Of a DNA stretch of 64,000 nt, positions 6,288-9,200 are shown one piece after another. Source of the stretch: Candidatus Nomurabacteria bacterium (GTDB lineage Bacteria; Patescibacteriota; Minisyncoccia; Phycocordibacterales; UBA918); the NCBI GenBank assembly GCA_023898565.1, contig CP060228.1:240594-304593 (forward strand), given 5' to 3'. Numbering within the stretch: the first letter of the stretch is position 1; every line of letters starts with the position of its first letter. The notes under the pieces are model-generated. The model had not been told where the DNA came from, searched no databases, and saw only the letters and a list, made by a program, of their open reading frames with translations. A program made the position numbers and the translations under genes.

Positions 6288-9200
6288 TTCCCTATGGGAA
6301 ACTACGTTCTATTAGTACACCTCGGCTAAACACATCACTGTGCGTACACCTAGTGCCTATCAACCAGATCATCTCTCTGGGAACTTAATGATTTCTAATC
6401 TTGGAGTTGGCTTCCCGCTTAGATGCTTTCAGCGGTTATCCATTCCGAACATAGCTACTCGGCAGTGCCACTGGCGTGACAGCCGATAGACCAGAGGTTC
6501 GTTCATCCCGGTCCTCTCGTACTAGGGACAACTCTCCTCAAAAATCGACGCCTGCAGTAGATAGGAGACCAACCTGTCTCACGACGGTCTAAACCCAGCT
6601 CGCGTATCTTTTTAATTGGCGAACAGCCAAACCCTTGGGACCTGCTCCAGCCCCAGGATAAGATGAGCCGACATCGAGGTGCCGAACCGTGCCGTCGCTA
6701 TGGACGCTTGGGCACGACTAGCCTGTTATCCCCAGGGTAACTTTTATCGGGTAATCTCCGGCGGCATCTAAAGCCAACCATCGGTTCACTATGCTCCACT
6801 TTCGTGTCTGTTCGGAATCTACTCCTCACAGTCAAGCTGGTTTATGCCATTACACTATCGTCACGGTTTCCATTCGCGACTAACCAACCTTGAGACCCCT
6901 CCGTTACATTTTGGGAGGGTAGCGCCCCACTAAAACTGCCTGCCACGCACTGTCTCGATGAGGTTTTTCCTCACCGGTTAGAGACTACCAAAATAAAGGG
7001 TGCTATTTCACTGGCGACTCCACGGTACCCGAAAGCCCGCTTCAAAGTCTCACACCTATACTACGCATTAATTCAATAGCCCCAATACGAAGCTACAGTA
7101 AAGCTCCTGGGGTCTTTTCGTCTAACTGCAGGTACGCGGCATCTTTACCGCGATTGTATTTTCACCAAGCAAGTCCTCGAGACAGTTTCCCACTCGTTAC
7201 GCCATTCGTGCACGTCGGAACTTACCCGACAAGGAAATACGCTCTATTTTCCCTTCTTTTATGTGTGACCCTTGAATCACACGTACACAATAGGACTCTA
7301 TCTTCACCACCATCTCACTTGCGTGAATGCTGCGGTGCCAAACATTTGGTCTCTTGTAGGTTTGGTTTGGATTATATGAATCATTTCTGACCCATAAGGT
7401 AACTGTGGCTAGGCTGCTTAACCCTACAATCGTTCCAATCCGTCGAGCGTATGATTTATTGGATCATGCGCTCGACCTTAGAACGATTATAGTTATCGCT
7501 GACATTTACCGGGGCTTATACAGTCCAGCAATACAAGACGAATCTCATATCACCCCCCGTATTTAACCTTCCGGCATAGGTCAGGCGTCACCCTCTATAC
7601 TTCCACTTTCGTGTTTGCAGAGAGCTGTGTTTTTGTTAAACAGTCGGCAGGAAATCTTTCGCTGCGGCCCTCCCTCCGAAGAGATTGGGCAGACCTTATC
7701 CCTAAGTTACGGTCGCTTTTTTGCCGAGTTCCTTGAGGACCTCTCACTTGTTCGCCTTAGTCTTCTCGACTCTACCACCTGTGTCGGTTTGCGGTACGGA
7801 ACCGCTACGCTTAACCCAAACGAAGTTTTTCTCGGAAGTGTGCTCCCCTCATTCCCACGGCCGTAGCCGTAAGTTCAGACCCTACTCGGATTATATGTCC
7901 CGGATTTGCCTAAGACACGTCCTCATAGTTCCAGCTCCAATCCAATAAGAAGCTTTGGGTACAACACTCCGTCCCTCCATAGGAACGTAGCAGTGTGCAG
8001 GAATATTAACCTGCTATCCATCGAGTCCCCCATTCGGGATTCCCTTAGGACCGACTAACCCTTCGCTGATCACCATCGCGAAGGAAACCTTGGTATTTCG
8101 GCGGGCAGGGTTCTCACCTGCCTTGCGGTTACTTGTGCCGGCATTCTCACTTCGCATCGCTCCACCGCGGCTCCCGCCTTGGATTCATCGCAATACGAAC
8201 GCTCTCCTACCACTTGTACTAAAAGTACAAATCCGCAGTTTCGGTATCATGCTTGAGCCCCGATCATTTTCGGCGCAAGGACTCTCGACCAGTGAGCTGT
8301 TACGCTTTCTTTAAAGGATGGCTGCTTCTAAGCCAACCTCCTGGCTGTTGAGGAATCCTCACCTCCTCATTTTGCACTGAGCATGAATTTAGGGACCTTA
8401 ACTGGCGATCTGGGCTGTTTCCCTTTTGACCAATGGAGCTTCTCCCCCATAGTCTAACTGCCAAACTTAACTAACTGGTATTCGGAGTTTGATAAAGAAG
8501 ACGAGATTTCTCCCTGTTCTTCTTTTCCAGTGCTCTACCCCCAGCAGAAACATTTGACGCCAACCCTAAAGCTGTTTCGGAGAGAACCAGCTATTACGGA
8601 ATTCGATAAGCTTTTCACTCCTTACCACAAGTCATCCGATGGTTTTGTACGGCCAACCGGTTCGGGCCTCCACGACCTATTACAGTCGCTTCACCCTGCT
8701 CATGGCAAGCTCATCCCGCTTCGGGTCGTACCCCTACCCCATAGTCGCGCTGTTCACGCTCGCTTTCACTGTGCCTCCGTGGGATTGCCACTTAGACAAG
8801 GGATAAAGGTACACTCGCCGGCTCATTCTTCAATAGGCACGCCGTCGCCCCGCAGGGCTCCGACTCCTTGTAGATGTATGGTTTCAAATCTATTTCACTC
8901 CCCTCTCCGGGGTTCTTTTCACCTTTCCCTCACGGTACTAGTTCACTATCGGTCTTCAAGAATATTTAGCCTTACCAGTTAGTACTGGCGGGTTCACCCG
9001 AGCTATTCATGTCTCGGGCTACTCAGGAACGAAATCAACAGAGAGCGTAACATTTCGAATACAGGACTATTACCTTCTGGGGTCGAGCTTCCCAGCTCGT
9101 TTTCCTATATTACGCTTTGATAACTCTGCGCAACTAAATGCAGATTTCGCCCTACAACCCCATACATATAAATACGTATGGTTTGGGCTGTTCCCCTTTC

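Follow-up and report, generated by a model that had tools for sequence, protein, structure and literature searches.

A compact insert of group I intron descent that lacks P4-P6, in the 23S rRNA gene of a Candidate Phyla Radiation bacterium

We analyzed a 64,000-nucleotide (nt) stretch of DNA (contig CP060228.1, positions 240,594 to 304,593, called the window below) for the nature of an insert that interrupts its 23S rRNA gene. Minus-strand positions 6289 to 9531 hold a complete bacterial large-subunit rRNA (Rfam LSU_rRNA_bacteria, 2411 bits, model positions 1 to 2925), which aligned with Escherichia coli 23S rRNA at 67% identity. Because its exons are 91 to 94% identical to the 23S rRNAs of Candidate Phyla Radiation (CPR) metagenome-assembled genomes (MAGs) labeled Saccharibacteria or "Nomurabacteria", the host is, on sequence grounds, a CPR bacterium. 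A MAFFT global alignment to the E. coli (Ec) sequence placed a 231-nt insertion directly after U1931, at window positions 7244 to 7474 of the minus strand, where it interrupts a conserved single-stranded junction of the rRNA. The junctions on the RNA strand read UCUAAGGU / CGAGCG...AAAAUAG / AGCGUAUUUCCUUGUCGGG (the 3' junction sequence is also given as AGCGUAUUUCC), so that U is the last base of the 5' exon and G that of the insert. An earlier note on this DNA had proposed a compact group I intron of about 231 nt at the L1931-equivalent site, preceded by U, ending in G, and free of any open reading frame (ORF) for a homing endonuclease. Site, length, and both junction bases are as it had described. 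The longest sense-strand ORF overlapping the insert has 38 amino acids (aa) and continues into the 3' exon (window 7197-7313), the longest lying fully within it has 26 aa (7304-7384), and no ORF of either kind resembles a homing endonuclease, again in line with that note.

6289-9531, minus strand: 23S rRNA gene, host of the intron (Rfam LSU_rRNA_bacteria).
7244-7474, minus strand: the 231-nt intron, in which intron position i is window position 7475-i (alignment to E. coli 23S; homology to about 90 compact L1931 introns).

The Rfam covariance model for group I introns (Intron_gpI, RF00028) gave the insert 14.5 bits (E value, 0.16 to 0.29) against a gathering score of 50, an outcome that the earlier note had named as speaking against its own proposal. 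In the alignment to the model, the region of P3, P7, P8, and J8/7 was matched, with 6 nt standing in place of the 81-nt P4-P6. As the threshold was not reached, relatives were collected for comparison. A scan of species-representative genomes, with two conserved core motifs as the query, returned 58 loci; in 57 of them the motif lies in an L1931 insert, of 196 to 280 nt in 56 and of 705 nt in the locus designated L058, and at L060 the 3' exon was not matched by the script. These loci are nearly all labeled CPR/Patescibacteria (Saccharibacteria, Paceibacteria, Nomura-, Kaiser-, and Parcubacteria). A metagenome scan, whose pattern consisted of the 5' exon and the exon-binding strand only and left the core unconstrained, returned at least 120 loci, and 96 complete L1931 introns of 186 to 876 nt were among the matches listed. 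Over both scans, the labels were nearly all CPR/Patescibacteria or absent. Since homologous inserts were found at this site in 57 of 58 genome loci and as 96 complete introns in the metagenomes, the comparison indicates that the insert is not an assembly artifact. Pairing counts were made on an alignment of 55 sequences and on a second one of 92 compact introns (alignment A2), and conservation was read from the 37 compact introns among the matches listed for the core-unconstrained scan (the core-unbiased set).

The L1931 introns fall into three forms. ORF-containing introns have 685 to 876 nt, and their ORF lies mostly between P3 and P7 and in some cases inside P8. Canonical introns without an ORF have 243 to 319 nt, and the 53 to 122 nt between their P3 and P7 are made up of P4 (UGCUGG/CAGCA), P5, and P6. 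The third form, to which the window intron belongs, is compact (186 to 280 nt), with a spacing of 4 to 7 nt between P3 and P7 in all members; about 90 distinct sequences of this class were among the matches listed.

It is through comparison with these relatives only that the sequence of the window intron identifies it as a group I descendant. The canonical same-site relative L091 passed the Rfam threshold, with 55.4 bits (E value, 1e-13) and P4, P5, and P6 aligned. A hidden Markov model (HMM) built from 13 canonical L1931 relatives only, when searched against the 64-kb window, produced only two matches, both in the insert (7448-7381, E value = 9e-4; 7354-7291, E value = 0.05); the two are collinear and skip model positions 107 to 199, which are the P4-P6 block. 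Set beside L091, L118, L154, and L069, the window intron cleanly lacks a block of about 70 nt that runs from J3/4 to J6/7 (AUAUGCUGG...AUCAGCAGGGAAG...P6...CCCUC). Three marks of group I introns are thus absent from it, namely, a passing Rfam score, a P4-P6 domain, and a splice-site U·G wobble. Present are the P3/P7 pseudoknot, the guanosine-binding pair, the R and S elements with J8/7, the terminal G (ωG), P10, and P8 and P9 in canonical order. The insertion after Ec U1931, the CPR-type 23S rRNA, and the collinear homology to known members place it in the CPR 23S L1931 lineage (23IS7). Of the earlier proposal, then, the group I ancestry stands, on the comparison with relatives, whereas the description as a standard compact group I intron does not, given the absence of P4-P6 and of U·G and the subthreshold Rfam score. 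The other Rfam matches in the insert (CRISPR-DR7, MIR2084, mir-1540, and Chlorobi-1; E values, 0.3 to 6) merely reflect hairpins.

Several individual loci deserve separate mention. Contig L001 (211-9751) corresponds to window positions 1 to 9545; its protein-coding flanks are near-identical to those of the window, with zero differences across most of window 250-6750, but identity falls to only about 90% in the rRNA region, which holds a diverged copy of the intron, a pattern that points either to a chimeric assembly or to replacement of the rRNA region between strains. The 705-nt intron of L058 (4927-5631) has A at the guide position discussed below and lacks the P4 motifs. Its ORF encodes LAGLIDADG_1 (E value, 7e-24), sits exactly in the P3-P7 gap, and reads into P7, P3', and P8; an in-frame TGA within the conserved G-F-T-D-G-E-G motif marks it as a pseudogene or as a gene in which TGA is read as Gly. 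Two MAGs (L017 and L028) labeled Patiriisocius (Flavobacteriia) and Acidimicrobiales carry the compact intron in a 23S rRNA whose helix 69 (H69) is of CPR type (AAUCGUUC); their contigs are probably misbinned CPR DNA.

The anatomy of the compact intron was derived from pairing and covariation across the relatives. In the 55-sequence alignment, 89.3% of the cells of the proposed helices were paired, versus 39 to 41% in slid controls, and the covariation score was 0.40, versus 0.06 to 0.11 in the slid controls, with 0 of 500 shuffles as high. The 92-sequence alignment gave 88.9% paired cells versus 36 to 43% in its slid controls. The minimum free energy (MFE) fold of the window intron alone recovered most of the helices (z = -3.8). 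The elements are as follows, in RNA order.

7480-7488, minus strand: 5' exon -14 to -6, 3' strand of H69, AAUCGUUCU; pairs with intron 39-47 (anchor helix "X"), 99.4% paired.
7475-7479, minus strand: 5' exon -5 to -1, AAGGU, 5' strand of P1, with the splice site after U(-1); pairs with intron 75-79, ACCUU.
7444-7474, minus strand: P1ext hairpin directly after the 5' splice site (intron 1-12/20-31); 12/12 pairs change on both sides, 91.7% paired, in the MFE fold.
7437-7441, minus strand: 5' strand of P2', GGAUU (intron 34-38); pairs with intron 102-106, 94% paired, CG:45/UA:41 at one pair.
7428-7436, minus strand: GGAACGAUU (intron 39-47), the strand that binds 5' exon -14 to -6 (pairing counts).
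7404-7427, minus strand: joining segment GUAGGGUUAAGCAGCCUAGCCACA (intron 48-71), highly conserved within the window's subfamily.
7396-7403, minus strand: internal guide GUU-ACCUU (intron 72-79), with 72-74 in P10 (100% paired) and 75-79 in P1 (94% paired).
7376-7395, minus strand: P2 hairpin with a GAAA tetraloop (intron 80-99); 7/8 pairs change on both sides, in the MFE fold.
7369-7373, minus strand: 3' strand of P2', AAUCC (intron 102-106; mutual information and pairing counts).
7360-7365, minus strand: 5' strand of P3, CCAAAC (intron 110-115); pairs with intron 132-137, 99 to 100% paired, 5/6 pairs change on both sides.
7354-7359, minus strand: linker of about 6 nt, CUACAA (intron 116-121), at the place of P4-P5-P6 in canonical relatives (6 nt for 81 in the Rfam alignment; block of about 70 nt absent).
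7345-7353, minus strand: 5' strand of P7 within the R element AGAGACCAAA (R is intron 121-130, window 7345-7354); includes G124 of the guanosine-binding pair.
7338-7343, minus strand: 3' strand of P3, GUUUGG (intron 132-137); pairs with intron 110-115.
7305-7337, minus strand: P8 hairpin with a GCAA tetraloop (intron 138-170); 12/13 pairs change on both sides.
7293-7304, minus strand: J8/7 and 3' strand of P7, the S element AAGAUAGAGUCC (intron 171-182); agrees with the Rfam consensus AAGAUAUAGUC.
7245-7292, minus strand: P9 (intron 183-186/227-230), enclosing the P9a hairpin (191-214) and the tail GAAGGGAA; 4/4 P9 pairs change on both sides, 92% paired; P9a in the MFE fold.
7248-7255, minus strand: tail AAGGGAAA (intron 220-227), the 3' exon anchor; pairs with 3' exon +13 to +6, 89% paired, AU:47/UA:36/CG:2.
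7244, minus strand: terminal G (ωG, intron 231); G in 36/37 introns of the core-unbiased set.
7231-7243, minus strand: 3' exon +1 to +13; AGC (+1 to +3) is in P10 and AUUUCCUU (+6 to +13) binds the tail (pairing counts).

A four-way junction with two unpaired nucleotides joins P1, the 5' exon anchor, P2, and P2'. P2' was found blind, through mutual information, and the 5' exon anchor shows compensatory changes in the 92 sequences (UA:67/CG:23 at one pair and UA:67/UG:18/CG:7 at another). At the other end, the exon variants AAUACC and GUACC are matched by intron tails AGGUAU and GGUAC, respectively. P7 pairs intron 122 and 124 to 126 with 179 to 182, and its conserved pairs are G124:C181, A125:U180, and C126:G179. 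Between the L001 intron and the window intron, many paired positions differ in a compensatory fashion.

Five other pairings were considered and set aside. A guide at intron 34-47, with a U(-1)·G35 wobble, is real only in its distal part (39-47 with exon -14 to -6), as 34-38 pairs with 102-106 (37:103, UA:42/CG:42). A 7-bp "P10" between intron 23-29 (AUACGCU) and 3' exon AGCGUAU is 78% paired over the family but covaries no more than shuffles do, so that it may at most be an extra contact. The helix UGUAGG(47-52)/CCUACA(115-120) is present in the window but not kept in relatives. CCUU(76-79) with AAGG of the tail is 93% paired and shows no real covariation, CCUU being better placed in P1 and the tail better paired with the 3' exon. 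AGGU(50-53)/ACCU(75-78) is no stable helix, since the partner varies while ACCU is invariant.

The joining segment, intron 48-71 (window 7404-7427), reads UAGG(G)UUAAGC-AGCCUAGCCA in the window's subfamily, and mutual information over the alignment found no pairing partner for it. The equivalent segment is an A-rich linker in 186-nt members. In the canonical L091 the equivalent includes UAAGGUA, which repeats the junction of the ligated exons and is paired with the guide by Rfam.

We next consider the guide and the pair that it forms at the splice site. Through P10, GUU or GCU of the guide pairs with AGC of the 3' exon in 100% of the sequences. The base opposite U(-1) is A75 in all 92 compact introns of alignment A2, and, in a motif-based classification, A75 is found in 86 of the 86 short introns that have neither P4 motif. 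Among the P4-P6-containing introns with a readable guide base, by comparison, 31 of 36 have G at this position. In the ribozymes that have been studied, it is J4/5 of P4-P6 that reads the U·G wobble. A joint loss of the wobble and of P4-P6 would make sense, and the two may be functionally linked.

The rest of the core is strongly conserved. Across the 37 core-unbiased compact introns, A121, G122, A123, G124, C126, and A128 are invariant, as are A171, A172, G173, A176, G179, C181, and C182, and G72, U74, A75, and C76 of the guide are invariant or nearly so. J8/7 reads AAGAUA in the window intron, and AAGA-A is kept throughout the set. Unlike these residues, which have catalytic roles in group I introns, the helices vary freely through compensatory changes. 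The pattern indicates that the compact core is under selection after the loss of P4-P6. Together with the strands that track exon variants, the invariant residues of catalytic role therefore fit an RNA that recognizes and joins exons and fit poorly with a passive insert.

In the P4-P6-containing L1931 relatives (L061-L180), the equivalent of the guanosine-binding pair G124:C181 covaries with the last intron nucleotide. A G:C pair goes with terminal G (102 introns) or A (13 introns; e.g., L068, L149, and L154), an A:U pair (AGAAACC/GAGUUC) with terminal U in 11 of 11, where the boundary is ambiguous by 1 nt (e.g., L093, L097, L125, and L145), and a U:A pair (AGAUACC/GGUAC) with terminal C in 5 of 5 (e.g., L090, L106, L128, and L069). 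Judging from these combinations, the G-binding site may have been naturally respecified.

The sequence comparison shows the anatomy of the insert, its descent from the CPR-lineage L1931 group I introns, the loss of P4-P6, and conservation since that loss; on this evidence, we consider it probable that the insert is still removed by group I splicing, possibly with the aid of a protein or of ribosome assembly. In this reading, the intron has lost its homing-endonuclease ORF and, along with it, through a clean deletion from J3/4 to J6/7, the whole of P4-P5-P6. It has retained the catalytic half (P3-P7-P8-P9), J8/7, the terminal G, and the 8-nt guide GUU-ACCUU, which is complementary to the ligated exons. 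Of the two customary transesterifications, the first would be an attack by guanosine after U1931, and in the second the freed exon would attack at the terminal G. The substrate helix may be positioned by the built-in architecture and not by J4/5 reading a U·G pair, which U:A has replaced; the four-way junction of P1, the 5' exon anchor, P2, and P2' would hold the substrate, with one helix clamping 9 nt of the 5' exon and another clamping 8 nt of the 3' exon, and a protein or the assembling ribosome may assist. The stronger proposal, that a natural class of group I introns (186 to 280 nt, about 90 sequences, from CPR) self-splices with neither P4-P6 nor U·G and that the four-way junction and the two exon clamps position its substrate, is in our estimate a little short of an even chance. 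Continued splicing is favored because the catalytic center of group I introns lies in P3-P7, with P4-P6 as a scaffold, and because an engineered minimal catalytic domain that lacks P4-P6 has been published (PMC6257700 and its reference 6, with Ikawa et al. cited there).

Several considerations weigh against continued splicing. In those group I structures that have been solved, J4/5, the J3/4 and J6/7 triples, and one metal-binding phosphate all come from P4-P6, and an RNA that has lost all of these may be catalytically dead or very slow. Changing U·G to U:A weakens catalysis in the ribozymes studied. P7 in the window's subfamily consists of four standard pairs plus A130:U175, and the three positions between them are noncanonical. 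A single deletion may underlie all of the compact forms, in which case the coupling of A75 with the absence of P4-P6 would represent one event and not many; the alignable L1931 intron sequence is too short for a reliable tree on one versus several origins. Finally, Everett et al. 1999, to go by the title under which PMC11270868 cites it, reported an L1931 intron that remains unspliced in the 23S rRNA of Simkania, which makes retention at L1931 conceivable.

If retention applied here, the insert would be a relic that persists in the mature rRNA, forming an expansion segment between H69 and H70/71, with its helices preserved for compact folding only. The intron lacks two features that catalysis normally requires, P4-P6 and the U·G wobble, and the Simkania title ("An unspliced group I intron in 23S rRNA...", as listed in PMC11270868) offers a precedent at the same site. 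We nevertheless regard this as unlikely, for J8/7, the R element, the terminal G, and the exon-complementary 8-nt guide are near-invariant across about 90 sequences and have no mere folding role, and the exon-binding strands covary with exon variants and, were the insert retained, would compete with ribosomal H69 and H71. A dependence on trans-acting help has somewhat more in its favor, though it too is doubtful: the chemistry would be of group I type but would rely wholly on a factor (a maturase-type LAGLIDADG protein, a host RNA-binding protein, or ribosome assembly) that replaces P4-P6, the naked RNA being inactive. This account overlaps with the assisted splicing proposed above. CYT-18 replaces P5abc, and proteins can stand in for peripheral or core support that a group I ribozyme lacks (PMC6257700); moreover, the LAGLIDADG_1 ORF of L058 occupies the P3-P7 gap of an intron that has guide A and no P4 motifs. 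The window intron, however, has no ORF, the Rfam scan of the 64 kb showed no second intron, no candidate factor emerged, and the built-in exon clamps suggest a solution based on RNA.

Excision by RNase III or other nucleases without ligation, which would leave a fragmented 23S rRNA, is very improbable. Intervening sequences do occur in bacterial 23S genes, including those of CPR (PMC11270868), and domain I of this gene itself contains a stem-like insertion of 91 nt. Yet the ends of the insert form no long terminal stem that would replace the tip of an rRNA hairpin, as those of RNase III-type intervening sequences do, and its MFE fold consists of separate internal helices; L1931 is an intron site and not a known site of intervening sequences, and the insert is homologous to group I introns. 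Such intervening sequences are, like the insert, extra sequence in a 23S gene that needs handling after transcription, but each is a simple, extended hairpin at helix 9, 25, or 45, with no catalytic-core motifs. Hardly credible, lastly, is an ordinary group I intron whose P4-P6 was overlooked, for example, within intron 48-104. The conserved and unexplained segment 48-71 would be the place to look, but canonical relatives have homologous 5' segments in addition to P4-P6, mutual information gave no more helices there, and all nucleotides of the 186-nt members are assigned, their equivalent of 48-71 being the A-rich linker, so that no space is left for a hidden domain.

Insertions at L1931 of CPR 23S rRNA have already been recorded as site "23IS7", with both LAGLIDADG-ORF and shorter ORF-less kinds (Tsurumaki et al. 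2024, PMC11270868). An ORF-less intron at L1931 in a CPR genome is therefore ordinary, while its architecture appears to be an undescribed variant: in the literature searched, which was not exhaustive, we found no description of a natural group I intron that lacks P4-P6 or that has U:A as its splice-site pair. The canonical CPR L1931 introns (L021, L091, L118, L154, etc.) share with the compact class the site and the 5' architecture (a hairpin after the splice site, P2', and P2 with a GNRA loop), the 5' exon anchor GGAYURGRACGRUU, the guide GCU-N-CCUU, the R and S core elements, P3, P8, and a short P9. They differ in having P4-P5-P6, mostly the guide GCU-G-CCUU with its U·G wobble, and often a LAGLIDADG ORF, and they pass the Rfam threshold. 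Introns of group I ancestry at the same rRNA site are known from organelles, Thermotoga, and Simkania, as represented by papers cited in PMC11270868 (its refs 27-28). The engineered ribozymes without P4-P6 (Ikawa, Shiraishi & Inoue 2000, as cited in PMC6257700) have in common with the compact introns the P3-P9 half without its scaffold. They are laboratory deletions, whereas the window's class is natural, widespread, and conserved and has added exon-clamping helices. These engineered ribozymes reportedly need high Mg2+ and polyamine. The L1931 introns of organelles, Thermotoga, and Simkania, set apart here by description and not by sequence, are larger, with complete cores and usually with ORFs. 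The Azoarcus pre-tRNA-Ile intron, of about 205 nt, commonly serves as the example of a minimal group I ribozyme in nature. Like the window intron, it is very small, with a GAAA tetraloop on P2 and few peripheral elements, but it keeps P4-P6 and the U·G wobble, and the compact class reaches down to 186 nt.

If the compact class self-splices, its members would rank as the smallest group I ribozymes in nature and as the natural counterpart of the engineered minimal catalytic domain. A natural and widespread lineage under purifying selection without P4-P6, and with U·G exchanged for U:A, would reveal which parts of the ribozyme truly cannot be dispensed with in vivo and would offer a minimal system of 186 to 231 nt for studies of structure and folding. 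If the inserts are instead unspliced, they would show that ribosomes tolerate a folded RNA of 200 nt beside H69. Because the window intron scores 14.5 bits, covariance-model screens probably miss many CPR rRNA inserts. The published CPR survey classified its inserts by Rfam matches and left those that fit no intron model uncharacterized (PMC11270868), and compact introns may be among the latter. Such introns matter for rRNA-based detection and for the annotation of CPR genomes.

Elsewhere in the 23S gene, the second small insertion that the earlier note had guessed at turned out to be two stretches of additional sequence in domain I, one 91 nt long after Ec231 (window 9223-9313) and one 54 nt long after Ec292 (window 9108-9161), offset in part by small deletions in the alignment to E. 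coli. For the 91-nt segment, folding gave a stable stem with branches (-47 kcal/mol, z = -6), which may represent either an expansion segment or an intervening sequence of the RNase III type; the other segment, of 54 nt, is without notable structure. The Rfam scan of the 64-kb window found no other introns and no 16S gene, including upstream of the 23S gene. On the minus strand, the 23S gene is followed by two tRNA genes (window 6133-6209 and 6047-6119) and a 5S rRNA gene; ARAGORN assigned to one of the spacer tRNAs the anticodon AAA (Phe), which is unusual in bacteria, and identified the other as tRNA-Val(CAC). GC skew is negative in all 2-kb bins of window 1-64000, and 10 of the 12 ORFs of at least 180 aa in the first 20 kb lie on the minus strand, both of which fit one replichore of a small genome.

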